This document shows positions 20,326-27,183 of a stretch of DNA of 36,034 nucleotides, piece by piece. Location of the stretch: the NCBI GenBank assembly GCA_001563915.1, contig LKMP01000009.1, positions 1 to 36,034 on the forward strand, written 5' to 3'. The position numbers and the translations under genes were made by a program. The notes beneath the pieces are model-generated. The model searched no databases, was not told the DNA's origin, and saw only the letters and a list, made by a program, of their open reading frames with translations. Positions within the stretch are counted from its first letter, which is position 1. The number at the start of each line of letters is the position of its first letter. This DNA is from Nanohaloarchaea archaeon B1-Br10_U2g21 (GTDB taxonomy: Archaea; Nanohalarchaeota; Nanosalinia; Nanosalinales; Nanosalinaceae).

Positions 20326-21783
20326 TTGGATAAAAAATTCTTGGAGCAGCTGATAGAACAAAACTTGGTAAAACACCAGACCGAATCATACAATAGATTC
20401 ATAGAAGACCGAATACAAGCTATTCTTAACGAAGTAGGCAGTATTGAACCAGAACTTCCTGACGGAGAAGATCTAGTAATCAAAATCGTTGACATGGATA
20501 TAAAGAGGCCTAAAATTCACGAAGCAGACGGCTCAGTAAGAAAAATTACTCCAAGAGAAGCTCGAATGCGAGATTTAACCTATTCTTCTGAAATCAAAGT
20601 TGAAATGGCACCTATTTTCGAGGGAGTAAAGCAAGAACCTGAAGAAGTAACCATTGGAGAGATTCCAGTCATGGTGGGTAGCGATTTATGCTGGAGTTCT
20701 GACTGGGATGAAGAAGAAAAAATTGAAAACGGAGAAGATCCAAAAGATCCTGGAGGATATTTCCTAATAAACGGTTCTGAAAAAACTATTATCTCAATGG
20801 AGGAGCTTACAAACAACAAGCCAGTTTTCCTCCAAGATGGCGACGAACAGACGTGTAGAGTTAACTCAGAGAACTCTGGCTATGTACAGCGACACGTACT
20901 TACAAGAGATAAAGATATAGTTACCATATCATTCGCAAATGTGAAAAAGACTCCTGCTGTCGCACTTCTAAAAGCGCTAGGATATGAAACAGATAAAGAA
21001 ATAGTCGAAATAATCGGCGAAGAATATGCATCAGATATTTACTTGAACATCTACGAAGTTGATGCAGCAAATCAGCAAGAGGCATTCGAATATATTGCTA
21101 ACCGAGCCGGCGTAACTAACGACGTGGAAGAAAGAGTTTCTAGCATACTTGATGATTACCTTCTACCCCACCTCGGACAGGATCCTGAATTTAGAGAAGC
21201 CAAGGCAGAATTTCTCGCAAACATGATCAGAAATACTATTGCTCTTGGCAAAGGAGACATAACTGAAGACGATATCGACCACTATGCAAACAAAAGGCTC
21301 AATCTTGCCGGCGAACTACTAGAGATGCAGTTCAGATCTGTATTCCTCGGTAAATGGGGGCTAGTAGCAAGAATGAAGTATAACTTCCAAAAATCTGCTA
21401 AGCGAGGCCGGCTTCCAAGCCTACAATCTACAGTTGTCTCAGATACTTTGAGCAAACAGATAATGGGTGCTATGGCCACAGGTAACTGGGTCGGTGGACG
21501 AACAGGAGTCTGTCAGCAACTTGATAGAAACAATAGAATCAAAACATTATCGCACCAGAGAAACATTGTTTCTCCGCTAAGCAGCGATAGACAACATTTT
21601 GAGGCAAGAGACTTACACCCAACTCACTGGGGCAGAATTGATCCTATAAAAACACCGGAAGGTATGAACATTGGACTCAGGACACACTTAGCAATGAGCG
21701 CAGATGTATCAACAGGAATGACAGAAATGGAGAAGAACGCATTGAAAATGACATTAGAGCAAGTAGGAATTGAGGTGGAATAA
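20326..21783 (+). CDS. rpoB2: RNA polymerase subunit B'' (Rpo2N)
   Basis: EARMRDLTYS, DPGGYFLINGSE, DHYANKRL and ARDLHPTHWGR; TTG start with GGTGA SD. Confidence 0.97.
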   Translation: MDKKFLEQLIEQNLVKHQTESYNRFIEDRIQAILNEVGSIEPELPDGEDLVIKIVDMDIKRPKIHEADGSVRKITPREARMRDLTYSSEIKVEMAPIFEGVKQEPEEVTIGEIPVMVGSDLCWSSDWDEEEKIENGEDPKDPGGYFLINGSEKTIISMEELTNNKPVFLQDGDEQTCRVNSENSGYVQRHVLTRDKDIVTISFANVKKTPAVALLKALGYETDKEIVEIIGEEYASDIYLNIYEVDAANQQEAFEYIANRAGVTNDVEERVSSILDDYLLPHLGQDPEFREAKAEFLANMIRNTIALGKGDITEDDIDHYANKRLNLAGELLEMQFRSVFLGKWGLVARMKYNFQKSAKRGRLPSLQSTVVSDTLSKQIMGAMATGNWVGGRTGVCQQLDRNNRIKTLSHQRNIVSPLSSDRQHFEARDLHPTHWGRIDPIKTPEGMNIGLRTHLAMSADVSTGMTEMEKNALKMTLEQVGIEVE

Positions 21784-21785
21784 AA

Positions 21786-23576
21786 ATGACAGACGTATTT
21801 TTAGACGGAGAAATACTGGGAGAAATCGAAGAACCAGAACAAGTAAGACAAAAACTAATAGAACAGAGAAGAGAAGGACTGATTGATCAAGAAGTTAACG
21901 TCTACTATGCTGAAGACAAAGACGAAATCCGGATCAACACCGACTCAGGAAGAATTTTAAGACCTTTGATAGTAATAGAAGAAGGAGAAGCGTCAATAAC
22001 GGAAGAAGAAATAGAAGAACTAGGAGAAGACCTTGATTTAAAGGAACTAGAAGAAGAAGGGAAAATTGATTATCTAGATGCTGAAGAGGAAGAGAATGCC
22101 TACGTGGCTATGAACCGAGAAAACATAACTGAAGAACACACCCATCTAGAAATCGATCCAGAAATTATAAATGGAATTTCAGCATCTCTCGTAGTCTACC
22201 CCGAACATAATCGTGGAGACCGTGTAAACTTTGGAGCAAAAATGGTAGGGCAAGGTCTAGGCCTTCCAAGTACAGATTTCCACCAAAAATTCCCTACACG
22301 TTCAAACATACTAACTTATGGACAGGATCCAATCGTAACCACGAAAACTTACGATACCTTAGTAGGAAGACATCCTATCGGACAAAATATGGTAGTGGCG
22401 CTAGCGTCATTTGATGGATACAATATTGAAGATGCAGTAATTATGAACAAGGCCTCAATTGACAGAGGACTATCAAGAACGACTTACATGAGAACTTATC
22501 AAACAGAAGCTCAGCGTTTCTGGGGAGGACAGAAAGATGAGATTGGAATCCCTGATAAAGATGTCAGAGGGTACAGAAGAGAAGAAGTGTACGCTCACCT
22601 TGATGAAGATGGTATTGTTAACCCTGAAACGAAGGTAGATTCTGATGATGTGCTTATTGGTAAGACTTCTCCTCCAAAATTCCTTGGTAGCGATGCAGGC
22701 GAAGTACAAATGGGATTGGCTGACAGAAGAGAGACTTCTCTAACTGTCAGACATGGAGAAAGAGGAAAAGTCGATAAGGTGATGATTTCAGAGACAGGAG
22801 ATGGCGATAAACTTCTCAAAATTAAGATGAGAGAGTATCGTATTCCTGAGCTTGGAGACAAGTTTGCAACAAGGCATGGACAAAAGGGAGTGATTGGAAT
22901 GATTACTCCAGAAGAGAACATGCCATTTACTAGGCAGGGAATTACACCAGATATTATCCTTTCGACTCACGCTGTACCAAGCCGTATGACAGTGTCACAG
23001 ATAATTGAACTTATGGCGGGTAAAGCCGGAGCAATGAGAGGAGAACCTGTAGACGGGACCGCATACCATAATGAATCTAAAGAAGAAATCAAAGAACAGC
23101 TAGAGGAACTAGGATTCAACTCTACAGGAAAAGAAAAGATGTACAATGGAGTAACAGGAGAAGAAATGGAAGCAGAGATCATGATAGGCCCAGCATACTA
23201 CTTGAAGCTAAGCCACATGGTTGCTGATAAAGTCCACGCTCGTGGACGAGGACCAGTAACTCTTCTAACAAAACAACCGACAGAAGGCCGTTCACAGGAA
23301 GGAGGACTAAGACTAGGAGAGATGGAAAAGGATGTCTTCGTAGGACACGGCGCATCACTATTACTCAAGGAAAGATTCGGAGCAGACTCTACAGAAATTG
23401 AAGTATGTGCCGAGTGTGGAGAGATAGGTGTATATGACAGAAAAGAGAACAAGAAATACTGTCCAAATTGTGATTCTGAGAATGTAGAAGAATCAGAGGT
23501 TCCTCACGCATTCCTATTACTGATGAATGAGCTGAAATCCATGATGATGGATACGAAGGTTGAGTTAGAGGAGTAG
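21786..23576 (+). CDS. rpoB1: RNA polymerase subunit B' (Rpo2C)
   Basis: GYNIEDA, GDKFATRHGQKG, QPTEGRSQEGGLRLGEME and a C-terminal zinc finger. Confidence 0.98.
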   Translation: MTDVFLDGEILGEIEEPEQVRQKLIEQRREGLIDQEVNVYYAEDKDEIRINTDSGRILRPLIVIEEGEASITEEEIEELGEDLDLKELEEEGKIDYLDAEEEENAYVAMNRENITEEHTHLEIDPEIINGISASLVVYPEHNRGDRVNFGAKMVGQGLGLPSTDFHQKFPTRSNILTYGQDPIVTTKTYDTLVGRHPIGQNMVVALASFDGYNIEDAVIMNKASIDRGLSRTTYMRTYQTEAQRFWGGQKDEIGIPDKDVRGYRREEVYAHLDEDGIVNPETKVDSDDVLIGKTSPPKFLGSDAGEVQMGLADRRETSLTVRHGERGKVDKVMISETGDGDKLLKIKMREYRIPELGDKFATRHGQKGVIGMITPEENMPFTRQGITPDIILSTHAVPSRMTVSQIIELMAGKAGAMRGEPVDGTAYHNESKEEIKEQLEELGFNSTGKEKMYNGVTGEEMEAEIMIGPAYYLKLSHMVADKVHARGRGPVTLLTKQPTEGRSQEGGLRLGEMEKDVFVGHGASLLLKERFGADSTEIEVCAECGEIGVYDRKENKKYCPNCDSENVEESEVPHAFLLLMNELKSMMMDTKVELEE

Positions 23577-23587
23577 AGGTGTCTAAA

Positions 23588-26065
23588 ATGAGCAAGAAAA
23601 TTAACAAGATAGAATTTGGAATCGTAAGTACAGAAAAACTAGATAACATGGCCGTGAAAGAAATTGACAAGGCCGAAGTATACGATGCAGACGGATACCC
23701 AGTAGAAAACGGAGTAATGGACCCTGCATTAGGAGTAATCGACCCAGGAATGACCTGCCAGACATGCGGAGGCCGGATCAGAGAATGTAAAGGACACTTC
23801 GGAATGATTACGCTTTCAAGACCTGTAGTTCACGTATTATACGCCAAAAAAATCAGAAACCTGTTAAGATTCACAAATATTAATGAAAACGGCGAGTGCA
23901 CACTGCTCCTGAAAGATGAAGACAAAGCCCTTAGAAAGTCAAACATGATGAAGGAAGACCCTGAAACAGGGGAAGAAATATCAGATGTTAAACTAAACAA
24001 GCCCTACACTTTTGTAGAAAATGGGGAAGAAATCAAGCCAGAAGAAATCAAAGAAAGGTTTGAACAGATTCCTGATGAAATTGCCGCTAAACTAGGAGTA
24101 GAAGGATGTAGACCTGAAGATCTTGTACTTGAAAAAATACCTGTTCCTCCTGTAACAATCAGACCTTCAATAACTTTAGAGACTGGAGAAAGGAGTGAAG
24201 ACGATATAACTCACAAGTTAGTAGATGTAATAAGAATCAACAAGAGACTTCAGAATAACATTGAGATAGAAGCTCCTGAATTCATTATTGATGACTTACA
24301 TGAACTACTACAGTACCACGTATCGACATTATTCTACAATGATATGAACAGTGTGCCTCCAGCACGACACAGGTCTGGAAGATCGCTGAAATCTTTAATA
24401 GAACGAGTCCAAGGTAAACAAGGACGTTTCCGTGAAAATTTAATTGGTAAACGTGTTAACTTCTCTGCTCGTACCGTAATCAGTCCTGATCCAAATATTG
24501 GGATTAACGAAGTCGGGGTACCTAAACTTGTAGCCAAAAAACTGACAATCCCGGAAAAAGTAACCGAGAGAAACTACGACAGACTAATGGAGCATGTAGA
24601 AAATGGGCCAGACAATCATCCTGGTGCTAACTACGTTTTCCAACCAAACGGAAGCAGAAGAAGGATAACTGAAGAAAACCAAGAAGAACTTAAAGAAGTA
24701 ATAGAACCCGGAGAAGGATGGATAGTTGAGAGACAAATACAGGATGACGACACAGTCTTATTCAACCGGCAGCCTTCCCTGCACAGAATGTCTATAATGG
24801 CACACAAAGTCAAAGTACTGCCATACAGAACATTCAGGCTCAACCTTAACGTCTGCGCACCTTACAACGCAGACTTCGACGGCGATGAGATGAACTTACA
24901 CGTACCTCAAAGCGAAGAAGCACGAGCAGAAGCAGAAGAATTAATGAAAGTACAAGAACATGTCAAATCTCCAAAGATGGGAGGCCCGATCATTGGAATG
25001 CTTCAAGATTATGTATCAGGACTATACCTCTTGACACAAGAAGATAGAGAATTAGACAGAGAAAAAGCATTCAATCTCCTAGCAGAAGCAGGAGAACACT
25101 TCTCAGATCTGCCTGAAGGAGACACCGTATCAGGACGAGAACTAGTATCATTATTCATACCTGACGACATCTCTTTGACAATTAATGAAGGCGAAGATCA
25201 CGAAGTAGTAATAGAAGAAGGAAAACTAGTCAAAGGAGTACTTGATGAAGATGCACTTGGAGACTATGGAGGAGAGATCATCCAACAGCTCAGCATTGAA
25301 TACGGAAGCGATAAAGTCGCAGAGTTCCTAAACAGAGTATCAAGAGTAGGAGCAATCTTCCTAACAAAGAGAGGATTCAGCATAGGTCTAGACGATCTTG
25401 AAGTACCAGAGGAAGCGACTGAACAAATCAAAGAAGTAATTGAGGCCTCCGTAGAGAATACTGAAGAACTTCTCAAAGAATACGAAGAAGGAAAGATGGA
25501 GGCTATGACTGGTAAAACTCTTGAAGAATCACGAGAAATTCGTGTTACACGAGAGCTGAATGAAGCCTTCACAGAAATTGGAGAAATCATCAGCAATCAC
25601 TTCGATGAAGACTCCTCAGCTTACGTCATGGCAGACTCAGGCGCAAGAGGTTCAATGCAGAACGTTACAACAATGGCCGGAATGCTTGGACAGAACAGTG
25701 TACGAGACCAGAGAATTGAAAGAGGATACAAGAACCGTACATTAAGCCATTACAAACCTGGAGAAATGAGTCCAGAAGCAAAAGGATTCGTATCTTCAAG
25801 TATTCTTGAAGGACTAGAACCACAAGAGATGTTTTTCCACCAGATGGCTCAAAGAAAAGCGCTGATGGATAAGTCACTCAGGACTAAGACCTCTGGATAC
25901 ATGTATAGGCGTATTTCTAACTCTCTCCAAGACTTGAGAGTAGAGTATGATCAAACTGTGCGTAATGCGCAGGGAGAAATCATCCAGTTCCGAGCCGGTG
26001 AAGACGGAATTGACCCACAAAAATCCGATAGAGGAAGAATCACAACCACCATCTCAACAAAATAG
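23588..26065 (+). CDS. rpoA1: RNA polymerase subunit A' (Rpo1N)
   Basis: CQTC...CKGHFG, GKRVNFSAR, FNRQPSLH and YNADFDGDEMN. The ATG at 23588 follows a GAGGTG SD; GTG at 23579 is the alternative. Confidence 0.98.
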   Translation: MSKKINKIEFGIVSTEKLDNMAVKEIDKAEVYDADGYPVENGVMDPALGVIDPGMTCQTCGGRIRECKGHFGMITLSRPVVHVLYAKKIRNLLRFTNINENGECTLLLKDEDKALRKSNMMKEDPETGEEISDVKLNKPYTFVENGEEIKPEEIKERFEQIPDEIAAKLGVEGCRPEDLVLEKIPVPPVTIRPSITLETGERSEDDITHKLVDVIRINKRLQNNIEIEAPEFIIDDLHELLQYHVSTLFYNDMNSVPPARHRSGRSLKSLIERVQGKQGRFRENLIGKRVNFSARTVISPDPNIGINEVGVPKLVAKKLTIPEKVTERNYDRLMEHVENGPDNHPGANYVFQPNGSRRRITEENQEELKEVIEPGEGWIVERQIQDDDTVLFNRQPSLHRMSIMAHKVKVLPYRTFRLNLNVCAPYNADFDGDEMNLHVPQSEEARAEAEELMKVQEHVKSPKMGGPIIGMLQDYVSGLYLLTQEDRELDREKAFNLLAEAGEHFSDLPEGDTVSGRELVSLFIPDDISLTINEGEDHEVVIEEGKLVKGVLDEDALGDYGGEIIQQLSIEYGSDKVAEFLNRVSRVGAIFLTKRGFSIGLDDLEVPEEATEQIKEVIEASVENTEELLKEYEEGKMEAMTGKTLEESREIRVTRELNEAFTEIGEIISNHFDEDSSAYVMADSGARGSMQNVTTMAGMLGQNSVRDQRIERGYKNRTLSHYKPGEMSPEAKGFVSSSILEGLEPQEMFFHQMAQRKALMDKSLRTKTSGYMYRRISNSLQDLRVEYDQTVRNAQGEIIQFRAGEDGIDPQKSDRGRITTTISTK

Positions 26066-26076
26066 GTGACTAAAAA

Positions 26077-27183
26077 ATGAGCGAATTACACTGGACAGAT
26101 AGAGCAGAACAACTACCAGAGCCATACACAGGCCTAAACCTTGATACAGAAACACAAGAGTGGTTAAACGAACGTTACAAAAAGATGCAGTACGAGCCAG
26201 GAGAAGCTATCGGTATTGTTGCAGCACAATCAATAGCAGAACCTGCAACCCAGCTTACGATGGAAACGTACCACCAGGCAGGAGGAGCACAAGTATCTCT
26301 TACTGCAGGATTACCTCGTCTAATCGAAATTGTAGACGCACGCCGAGAGCCAAAGACTCCGGCAATGAACGTCTACCTAAAAGAAGAATACAACTCTCGA
26401 GAAGAAGCTACAAAACTAGCCAGAAAGCTTAGAGAAGTCAAGTTCACAGATCTCGTCACAAAGGATACTATTGATATCATGCAGCTTGAAGTAGAGTACG
26501 AACTCAATTCTGCTCTATTAGAAGACTATGACATCGATATGGAAGATGTTAAATCTAGAGTAAAAGATTCTGTAAAGAAGTCTAAACTCAGTATAGATGA
26601 CAATAGCATAATATTAGAATCCTCCGAAGAAGACTATACCCTTCGAGACCTTAAAGACTTAAAAAACAAGGTTGAGGATGCAAGAATCAAAGGAATTAAG
26701 GGAATAGAGCAAGTTGTCATTAATGAAAACGATGGAGAGTGGGAACTTCAGACCGCAGGAACCGCACTTAGAAAGACACTGAAGATAGAAGAAGTAGATG
26801 AAAACAGAACAATCTCTAACCACTTATTCGAGGTTAAGAGAGTATTAGGAGTAGAAGCCTTAAGAAACAGAATTATCGTAGAGACAAATCAAACTCTAGG
26901 AGCACAAGGAATCAGTATAGACAATAGACACATTATGCTACTAGCTGACATGATGACTAAAACAGGAGGGCTCAAAGGAACAACACGTTATGGAATCGTA
27001 GGCGACAAGCACTCCATACTCGCCCGTTCAGTTTTCGAAGAAACCAAGAAACACCTAAGAGAAGGAACACTTGGCGGAGAAGAAGATGAACTTGAAGGAG
27101 TAGTAGAAAACATCATCACAGGTCAACCTGTACCTATAGGAACTGGTACCGTAGACCTGAAACCAAGCTTCGAAAAGGAGTAA
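26077..27183 (+). CDS. rpoA2: RNA polymerase subunit A'' (Rpo1C)
   Basis: EPGEAIG..AAQSI.EP.TQ, GLPRLIEI, RHIMLLAD.MT and GVVENIITGQPVPIGTG. Confidence 0.97.
   Translation: MSELHWTDRAEQLPEPYTGLNLDTETQEWLNERYKKMQYEPGEAIGIVAAQSIAEPATQLTMETYHQAGGAQVSLTAGLPRLIEIVDARREPKTPAMNVYLKEEYNSREEATKLARKLREVKFTDLVTKDTIDIMQLEVEYELNSALLEDYDIDMEDVKSRVKDSVKKSKLSIDDNSIILESSEEDYTLRDLKDLKNKVEDARIKGIKGIEQVVINENDGEWELQTAGTALRKTLKIEEVDENRTISNHLFEVKRVLGVEALRNRIIVETNQTLGAQGISIDNRHIMLLADMMTKTGGLKGTTRYGIVGDKHSILARSVFEETKKHLREGTLGGEEDELEGVVENIITGQPVPIGTGTVDLKPSFEKE

Follow-up and report, generated by a model that had tools for sequence, protein, structure and literature searches.

A glycine-free N-terminal hinge in the RNA polymerase bridge helix of Nanosalinaceae

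In archaea and eukaryotes, the N-terminal glycine hinge of the RNA polymerase (RNAP) bridge helix (BH) had been regarded as all but invariant and as unable to tolerate mutation, and a BH in which no hinge glycine remains raises the question of what kind of enzyme carries it and how such a hinge came to be tolerated. This BH is encoded in a window of 36,034 nucleotides (the whole stretch of DNA analysed here) on contig LKMP01000009.1 of Nanohaloarchaea archaeon B1-Br10_U2g21 (GenBank assembly GCA_001563915.1). An original prediction, made from the letters of the window, had described the segment as a heavily rewritten Rpo1N bridge helix, had argued against sequencing error, and had proposed altered trigger-loop contacts and a lineage-specific nucleotide-addition cycle. 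The segment is the BH of the only RNAP of a Nanosalinaceae-type nanohaloarchaeon, and its hinge probably belongs to a co-evolved, compensated remodelling of the BH cap and trigger loop (TL) module, with an intact catalytic face and an N-terminal hinge free of glycine. The features at the centre of the argument are:

23579..26065, plus strand: rpo1N / rpoA1, RNAP subunit A', 828 codons from GTG, intact frame
25832..25936, plus strand: BH, A' residues F752-L786, translation FFHQMAQRKALMDKSLRTKTSGYMYRRISNSLQDL
25844..25861, plus strand: N-terminal hinge (BH-HN, alias H3/H4), M756-A757-Q758-R759-K760-A761, equivalent to M808-G809-G810-R811-E812-G813 of Methanocaldococcus jannaschii A' (mjA') and to yeast Rpb1 M818-G823
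25865..25882, plus strand: coupled pair M763 / R768, equivalent to mjA' V815 / R820 and yeast I825 / K830

The gene is an ordinary orthologue. What is new is the state of its hinge, a natural variant of an element that has been studied in great depth. Subunit A' is 100% identical to database protein P0004 (825 aa), which starts at the ATG at 23588, three codons later; Pfam Rpb1 domains 1-5 follow one another along it in their usual order (E from 1e-73 to 2e-19), and it matches A' of Thermococcus kodakarensis (4qiw_A) over its full length (E = 7e-254). HMMER aligns FFHQMAQRKALMDKSLRTKTSGYMYRRISNSLQDL to the BH of the same chain and of a second Thermococcales structure, and related proteins bear the names of nanohaloarchaea (Nanosalina, Nanohalobium, Nanohalovita, Nanohalococcus and Nanohaloarchaea SG9), so the assignment of the segment to Rpo1N stands. 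The catalytic NADFDGD motif and the N-terminal zinc-binding Cys/His motifs, VCAPYNADFDGDEMNLH and CQTCGGRIRECKGHFG, are kept in invariant alignment columns. The A' gene is present in a single copy, and no second rpo1N copy was found in the source genome of 816 kb, estimated to be 92% complete.

Residues are numbered after the M. jannaschii mutagenesis papers, mjA' M808 corresponding to M756 here and to yeast M818, and the equivalence of the hinge in mjA' and yeast is taken from PMC2988716 and PMC5127505. Relative to mjA', G809 is replaced by A or S, G810 by Q, E812 by K and G813 by A, so that the glycines of the N-terminal hinge in the two-hinge Weinzierl model, or of the H3-H4 hinge of Kireeva et al., are here A757, Q758 and A761. 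Every change originally named, GG to AQ, E to K, G to A and DTA to DKS, is present relative to the T. kodakarensis BH; the yeast Rpb1 motif quoted alongside them agrees in numbering with PMC5127505 and PMC3533926. In M. jannaschii, where BH-HN is defined as M808-E812, G809 and G810 are described as 'essentially invariant' and G813 as less sensitive, and any non-glycine residue at G809 or G810 causes a severe loss of activity, because higher helix propensity lowers kinking (PMC2988716). In yeast, the single alleles G819A and G820A are both slow, G823A differs little or is slightly fast, and the triple replacement of 819-GGREGL-824 by AAREAL is lethal (PMC3533926). The sequence at this position here is AQRKAL.

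The catalytic face of the helix is unchanged. T769, G773, Y774, R777 and R778 (mjA' T821, G825, Y826, R829 and R830) are kept and are invariant in 33/33 Nanosalinaceae sequences, as is the C-terminal hinge S772-G773 (mjA' S824-G825); mutagenesis in M. jannaschii identifies all five as intolerant residues in contact with template DNA or the nucleoside triphosphate (NTP), the contacts of T821, G825, Y826 and R829 being described as essential (PMC2776397). The remaining changes, V815 to M/A, T/Q817 to K, A818 to S, V819 to L, A822 to K, Q823 to T and Q828 to Y, include K765, S766, L767, K770, T771 and Y776 in the present sequence, and sit mainly where the mutagenesis papers place the helix face pointing off the active centre, or at superactivating sites. 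Superactivating positions face away from the active centre (PMC2776397), and Q817-K is itself superactive in M. jannaschii (PMC2988716).

When 5.8 billion proteins were searched, there were 120 hits, and all 87 metagenome proteins among them that were at least 70% identical in the C-terminal part have the motif M[AS]QRKAL[MAT]DKSL[RNK]TK[TK]SGYMYRR (87/87). The phylum in GTDB comprises 70 species genomes in one order and five families, and A' was found in 68 of these genomes. M[AS]QRKA together with DKSL occurs in all 50 genomes of Nanosalinaceae (MSQRKA in 39, MAQRKA in 11), for which it is a clean sequence signature, and the other Nanohaloarchaeota families (17 loci, hinge readable in 15) have MSGREG in 14 cases and MSQREG in one. 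The canonical reference consisted of 31 archaea, with no eukaryote among them, chosen by record title from 80 loci among the matches listed; their hinge is [M/I/A]GGREG in 30 and MTGREG in one. Contigs of two runs, which probably represent the source sample and so are not independent, contain no variant in the hinge codons; no RNA run was listed among the sequencing runs found. Sequencing error, against which the original prediction had argued, is contradicted by this consistency, and the proposed coordinated rewrite is inherited, being fixed in Nanosalinaceae; the hinge change is specific to that family, and it belongs to the family as a whole and not to one genome. The canonical form is also less universal than had been assumed. 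A glycine-free hinge (NSRES, NSREN or ASREN) occurs in 8/14 Aenigmatarchaeota-like sequences, and the glycine-poor hinge of Woesearchaeota is TGRDS, with TARDS in one sequence. As these Aenigmatarchaeota-like sequences and one from Woesearchaeota are likewise free of glycine, loss of the hinge glycines is a recurrent theme in DPANN, which Nanosalinaceae combine with the change of E to K. Bacteria normally have K where the E stands and A in place of the second glycine (E. coli beta' HGARKGL), and the change of DTA to DKS is common to Aenigmatarchaeota and not peculiar to this lineage.

Amino acid identity in the BH and in the rest of A' is 0.90 and 0.65, respectively, among canonical archaea, 0.54 and 0.50 between Nanosalinaceae and canonical archaea, and 0.92 and 0.79 within Nanosalinaceae. 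Given that BH identity is high within both groups and low between them, the usual extra conservation of the BH was lost on the branch to Nanosalinaceae and then built up again around the new sequence. When a position is counted as replaced if the canonical residue is present in no more than 5% of the 33 Nanosalinaceae sequences, 21 of the 221 A' positions that are invariant in the 31 canonical archaea are replaced: 7/22 in the BH and 14/199 elsewhere in A' (one-sided Fisher p = 0.0017, a test that kinship among the sequences makes descriptive, not inferential). On a 15-residue scale, such replacements are packed most tightly at 752-771, over the whole of A'. In the other large subunits, the corresponding counts are 6/67 in A'', 19/171 in B' and 16/66 in the sampled C-terminal part of B''. 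Q755, Q758, K760, A761, K765, S766 and K770 are invariant in all 33 sequences and are each encoded by two to four codons, across a synonymous difference (pS) of about 0.67 per site, which is saturated; the ratio of nonsynonymous to synonymous difference (pN/pS) is 0.12 in the BH and 0.20 in the rest of A'. The new hinge form is therefore fixed across Nanosalinaceae and held by purifying selection.

The elements around the hinge belong to all four large subunits, the genes for which stand in the order B'' (20326-21783), B' (21786-23576), A' and A'' (26077-27183), followed by those for a NusA-type KH protein, S12, S7 and EF-2; split A' and A'' genes in a B''-B'-A'-A'' cluster are the archaeal arrangement. 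The elements compared are:

25646..25831, plus strand: F-loop region before the BH and capping it, A' residues 690-751
26077..27183, plus strand: rpo1C / rpoA2, RNAP subunit A'', 368 aa, E = 3e-84 to T. kodakarensis A''
26236..26328, plus strand: TL, A'' residues A54-E84, placed by alignment to T. kodakarensis A''; canonical GEPGTQMT[LM]RTFHYAGVAE.NVTLGLPRLIE
26980..26994, plus strand: switch-1 motif T302-T-R-Y305-G in A''; canonical I-G-R-H-G
21538..21693, plus strand: fork domain of B'' (Rpo2N) with fork loop 2 / beta-D loop II, residues 405-456; canonical ...CPxETPEGPNCGLVKNLA
22191..22262, plus strand: Link domain of B' (Rpo2C), residues 136-159, VVYPEHNRGDRVNFGAKMVGQGLG; canonical iPypEHNaSPRnTmgAgMvKQaLG
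23295..23297, plus strand: B' Q504 in G-R-S-Q-E-G-G-L-R-L-G-E-M-E; R is invariant here in canonical archaea

Beta-D loop II, the Link domain and the F-loop are described as exceptionally conserved elements that tightly surround the BH N-terminus (PMC2988716). Every element published as packing around the hinge (F-loop, fork loop 2 / beta-D II and Link) has been rewritten, along with the TL, including its H1 hinge glycine, and switch 1. In a FastTree of A' only, built with the BH columns removed and rooted at its midpoint, Nanohaloarchaeota sit beside the Aenigmatarchaeota-like sequences, and the distribution of the changes shows the hinge rewrite as the last step of a nested series that runs from a layer common to Aenigmatarchaeota-like genomes, through one common to all Nanohaloarchaeota, to one found in Nanosalinaceae. 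The first layer comprises loss of the first hinge glycine (to N, K or S, the Aenigmatarchaeota-like pattern being [NK][SG]RE[SGN]); D-[K/S/Q/T]-S-L in place of D-T-A-V; SEPATQ and Y65 in the TL in place of the canonical GEPGTQ and F (SEPATQ..R.YH in Aenigmatarchaeota-like sequences); the change of switch-1 H305 to Y; and the conversion of Link ..EHN.SPRNT...M.KQA.G to ..NRGDRVN[YF]GAKM.GQ[GS].G, in which P145D and K155G are common to the Aenigmatarchaeota-like sequences. The second layer adds Link P137V, BH Q776 to Y, and TL R63 to E (E63 in 50/50 Nanosalinaceae and in 16/17 others, one having D, against R in 30/31 canonical archaea and N in one), as well as fork-loop E442K, C449I and V452R in all Nanohaloarchaeota sampled, where the end of the canonical CPxETPEGPNCGLVKNLA becomes [HY]LA. 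The third consists of BH A755Q, E760K, G761A and T/Q765K; G758Q, which the one genome of f2 has too; K453T in the fork and R504Q in B', both found in Nanosalinaceae only; and W181D, D253Y, K278Q and P427A elsewhere in A'. K760, A761 and Q755 occur only in Nanosalinaceae. Two of these more distant family-only A' changes affect canonically invariant positions: that at W181 (24119-24121) turns RPEWMVL into RPEDLVL, and that at P427 (24857-24859) turns VCPPYNADFDGD into VCAPYNADFDGD directly before the catalytic aspartate triad.

In the F-loop, canonically invariant positions are replaced at N706, D710, I742 and L743, and in switch 1, G303T and H305Y affect canonically invariant positions, with Y in 32/32 Nanosalinaceae read and H in 30/30 canonical sequences read. 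The TL keeps its catalytic His66 (Rpb1 H1085) in 50/50 genomes and the distal hinge G78-L79-P80 (G1097, P1099), and has A54, E63, Y65, Q67 and G70 in place of the proximal hinge glycine (Rpb1 G1073), the basic or amide residue at N1082 (Ec R933, of E. coli), and the packing residues F1084, F/Y1086 and V1089. Position 54 is G in only 12/50 Nanosalinaceae, Y65 is present in 50/50, and position 70 is G or A in Nanosalinaceae against V in 30/31 canonical archaea (one unread). In yeast, TL G1073A is slow and has a fidelity defect (PMC3533926). The TL has changed as well, by R/N63 to E (50/50), F65 to Y and V70 to G/A, which supports the original prediction on this point. The TL change of R to E is phylum-wide and older than the Nanosalinaceae-only hinge change; a single, simultaneous compensating charge swap between BH E-to-K and TL R-to-E was accordingly rejected, since TL E63 is phylum-wide (66/67 read) and K760 is confined to Nanosalinaceae.

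The combinations of BH 760 and B' 504 are E/R in 49 sequences, K/Q in 24 (all of them Nanosalinaceae), E/K in 14, D/K in 10 and others in 9. B' keeps one P-S-R, which we take to be the motif of E. coli (Ec) beta R1106. The idea that B' R504 is the NTP gamma-phosphate arginine (Rpb2 R1020) was rejected, as R1020 is equated with Ec beta R1106 adjoining Ser in PMC3533926. In the fork itself, B'' residue 439 (21640-21642) gives G-R-I-D-P in place of G-R-[IVL]-C-P, and D is present in 2/24 Nanosalinaceae sampled over the 66-residue fork segment.

Positions within the module vary in concert. The 763/768 pair is MR in 26, AN in 9 and TN in one of 36 Nanosalinaceae sequences, with no mixed pair, and toggles with six switches by Fitch parsimony; among the 87 metagenome proteins the counts are 61 MR, 24 AN, 1 MK and 1 TN. 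Both MR and AN states are present within four GTDB genera, and the source genome is MR, its four congeners AN. F-loop residue 711 follows the toggle, with Q in 24/26 MR and T in 8/10 AN sequences, and no link to TL residue 74 (S/D/N) was found by eye in the alignment. In the TL of the 50 Nanosalinaceae genomes, the 67/70 pair is Q/E-G in 26, A/S-A in 22 and Q-A in 2. Recombination was tried as a cause of the 763/768 toggle and rejected, as the A/N haplotypes share no nucleotide tract and have varied flanking codons, although an ancient exchange may have taken place. TL 67/70 corresponds to yeast F1086/V1089, a described interacting pair, and yeast K830 (R768 here) is salt-bridged to D826 and, in the closed state, touches TL V1094. 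Loss-of-function alleles of the TL are suppressed by gain-of-function alleles of the BH (PMC5127505), and co-evolution of the TL with its context is widespread, the context dependence of TL sequences being pervasive (PMC12391331). The 763/768 and 67/70 patterns fit this published mutual suppression of BH and TL and the context dependence of the TL. With the 763/768(/711) toggle, a small epistatic pair has been sampled repeatedly at a BH/TL contact that is already known, that of yeast K830.

These observations are probably best explained by stepwise replacement of the glycine hinge under epistatic compensation. Hinge replacements that are crippling in M. jannaschii or, as a triple, lethal in yeast would have been tolerated by virtue of changes in partner elements and back-face residues, as for instance by the K that replaces mjA' Q817, a change that is superactivating in M. 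jannaschii. The helix would then be intrinsically stiffer at its N-terminal hinge, and K760, which occupies the place of the switch lysine of bacteria (K1079 of Thermus thermophilus (Tt) beta', K781 of E. coli), may now control the contact between helix and fork. The enzyme would be active, with a probably re-tuned nucleotide-addition cycle in its rate, pausing and fidelity. A lineage-specific nucleotide-addition cycle, as the original prediction proposed, can reasonably be inferred from published mutagenesis.

Several points weigh against this explanation. The stiffness, the compensation and the pairing of K760 with the fork are deduced from sequence and from mutants of other enzymes. The published basis for compensation is incomplete, because G823A alone is mild in yeast (PMC3533926) and hinge effects are reported there to be largely additive. 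Replaced invariant positions are common enzyme-wide (about 9-11% in A', A'' and B', and 24% in the sampled part of B''), so that a generally fast rate of evolution accounts for part of the BH signal; the gap in pN/pS is modest and the synonymous sites are saturated. The Nanosalinaceae-specific step is a single ancestral event, and finding E760K together with B'' K453T and B' R504Q is therefore a case of n = 1 and no proof of coupling. GTDB family labels and the midpoint-rooted FastTree of A' underlie the nested order, and long-branch attraction among DPANN could distort the link to Aenigmatarchaeota.

A bolder version of compensated remodelling would have Nanosalinaceae RNAP cycling without a glycine N-terminal hinge by means of a convergent, bacterial-style switch between K760 and a fork Asp, together with bacterial-like TL and B' residues. 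The BH lysine Tt beta' K1079 is a proposed, bacteria-specific switch residue that pairs with fork D429 (PMC3533926). Both K760 and the B'' fork motif E426-A-R-D429 are present, the correspondence between the Tt and archaeal forks being our own alignment by motif; the same fork motif also occurs in canonical archaea, with E at the BH position. A bacterial-style ionic switch between BH and fork is possible on this evidence, and the full scheme seems doubtful. If true, it would constitute a natural experiment in which the 'essential' GG hinge of eukaryotes and archaea proved replaceable by a different control once the surrounding cap had been re-engineered.

Among the rival explanations, neutral drift survives best, although it is unlikely. 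On this account, the N-terminal glycine hinge is dispensable in vivo, near-neutral changes were fixed in small, fast-evolving symbiont populations, and the enzyme is ordinary. DPANN do deviate at the hinge in general (TGRD[SA] in Woesearchaeota, NSRES in Aenigmatarchaeota-like sequences), replaced invariant positions are spread across all four large subunits, and yeast G823A has little effect (PMC3533926). However, the new residues are invariant over a saturated synonymous divergence and hence constrained, in M. jannaschii even one replacement, of G809 or of G810, is severe (PMC2988716) and in yeast the triple is lethal (PMC3533926), the contact partners have changed in the same lineages, and the 763/768 pair is never mixed across six switches, indicating strong epistasis.

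Adaptation to a molar-salt cytoplasm, in which E to K, G to A/S and TL R to E would tune the helix for high ionic strength, would suit an organism from a salt-lake metagenome and a Nanosalinaceae-specific step within a clade that is hypersaline, judging from the names of its relatives. This is quite improbable, as a Halobacteriales-labelled protein (P0117) and Halobacteriota/Euryarchaeota loci L085 and L076 keep the canonical helix, the other Nanohaloarchaeota families keep the E and two of the three glycines, and the early layers (DKSL, glycine loss, Link rewrite and switch-1 Y) are common to Aenigmatarchaeota-like genomes, some of them from groundwater or hydrothermal sources by title.

Escape from an inhibitor that binds the BH cap, analogous to the CBR compounds in bacteria and made by hosts or competitors in brines, is very unlikely; to our knowledge, no such inhibitor of archaeal RNAP is known. 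The hinge is fixed, no resistance-type polymorphism was seen in it, and the changes reach well past one pocket, into switch 1, the Link domain and the clamp tip. In its favour, and by analogy only, CBR compounds bind the bacterial beta' bridge helix, where mutants of the contact between BH and beta change catalysis, and the changes in Nanosalinaceae cluster in the BH N-terminus, F-loop and fork loop, which form the CBR703 interface (PMC3959191). An artefact or decaying gene, be it an error of sequencing or assembly, a chimera in the bin or a copy that is a pseudogene, would now require a systematic error common to all public assemblies and can hardly be entertained for an intact frame with all catalytic and zinc motifs, present once in a genome of such completeness, under evident purifying selection, with its motif in 50/50 independent genomes, single-contig ones included, and no differences in the hinge codons in the contigs of the two runs.

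Compared with the canonical archaeal BH (T. kodakarensis 4QIW chain A; mjA' 806-830), the BH of Nanosalinaceae belongs to the same gene, has the same operon position and length, has the same template and NTP contact residues (T, G, Y, R and R), keeps the C-terminal hinge S-G and shares 20/35 residues with T. kodakarensis; it differs in that the three hinge glycines and E812 are replaced (by A/S, Q and A, and by K), as is the back face. The engineered yeast AAREAL mutant (PMC3533926) resembles AQRKAL in that none of the three glycines is left and that Ala stands at the first and third of these positions, but it is lethal, whereas AQRKAL is the fixed wild type in an altered fork, Link, F-loop and TL context and with K for E. 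The BH of E. coli beta' (HGARKGL) likewise has a non-glycine residue at the second hinge position; its K781 (Tt K1079) matches K760, L788 matches L767 (the V819 position), and A784 matches A763 of the A/N variants (the V815 position). L60 and M62 of the TL (Q-L-T-M) match the bacterial state of E. coli QLTMRTFH, and E. coli beta Q1264 aligns with B' Q504 in G-x-x-Q-x-G-G-x-R-x-G-E-M-E. Bacteria, however, keep G778 and G782, whereas Nanosalinaceae have no hinge glycine and the rest of A' is clearly archaeal, and the bacterial-like residues represent convergence at few positions and not homology by transfer. The Aenigmatarchaeota-like BH of loci L056, L057, L065 and L082 also has a glycine-free hinge (I/M-N-S-R-E-S) and shares D-K-S-L, TL SEPATQ, TL Y65, switch-1 Y and the rewritten Link with Nanosalinaceae, but it keeps E812, TL R63 and fork E442 and is without Q755, K760, K770-T771 and Y776. 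The proline and deletion variants of the BH in Orientia tsutsugamushi and plant Pol IV/V (PMC2988716) are natural departures at the hinge positions too; these variants add helix breakers, for more kinking, whereas the Nanosalinaceae variant removes them and should kink less.

A full-text literature search, outside whose range subscription journals lay, found no description of this BH rewrite. Nanosalinaceae provide an evolution-tested set of alleles (hinge, fork loop, Link, F-loop and TL) for the hinge model and for active-centre epistasis, and intermediates of the hinge rewrite are preserved in the sister families. Clade-specific shifts at 'invariant' RpoA/RpoB sites are also a warning for deep phylogenies that place DPANN.

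Several further observations concern the same genes. In A', replaced invariant positions form their next densest cluster after that of the BH at residues 224-240 (24248-24298), with six in a 15-residue window (RLQNNIEIEAPEFIIDDLHELLQYH); these changes are mostly common to all Nanohaloarchaeota, and the region is one that we take to be the clamp coiled-coil tip, where Spt4/5, TFE and TFB bind. In the only nanohaloarchaeal genome of f2 (L041, G001:C11), in L068, L107, L114 and L119, and in P0100, A' and A'' are fused into a single open frame of 1128-1187 aa; the fused loci outside f2 belong to Altiarchaeota, Woesearchaeota and Aenigmatarchaeota-like genomes. Fusion in f2 and in several other DPANN loci implies that the split of archaeal subunit 1 has been undone several times. 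The A'' frame, measured from stop to stop, is 452-517 aa in families f4 and f5 (L031-L047), compared with 369-445 aa in Nanosalinaceae (369 here), which points to an insertion of roughly 100 residues. In-frame stops interrupt the A' match at two loci, with one TAA in L028 (G050:C1:171730-174198, a single-contig genome) and one TAG in L036 (G007:C12); the TAA probably lies at the very start of the A' frame, which is open from residue 4 onwards. Short contigs from the same two runs, at depths of 200-980, cover the conserved stretches 25400-25440 and 25616-25692 with 2-5 differences; their presumable origin is in relatives or hosts that were far more abundant in that brine sample. Loci L080, L091 and L126, titled 'uncultured Methanosarcinales archaeon', have an A', BH and TL of Woesearchaeota type and cluster with Woesearchaeota in the A' tree, and their taxonomic labels are probably wrong.

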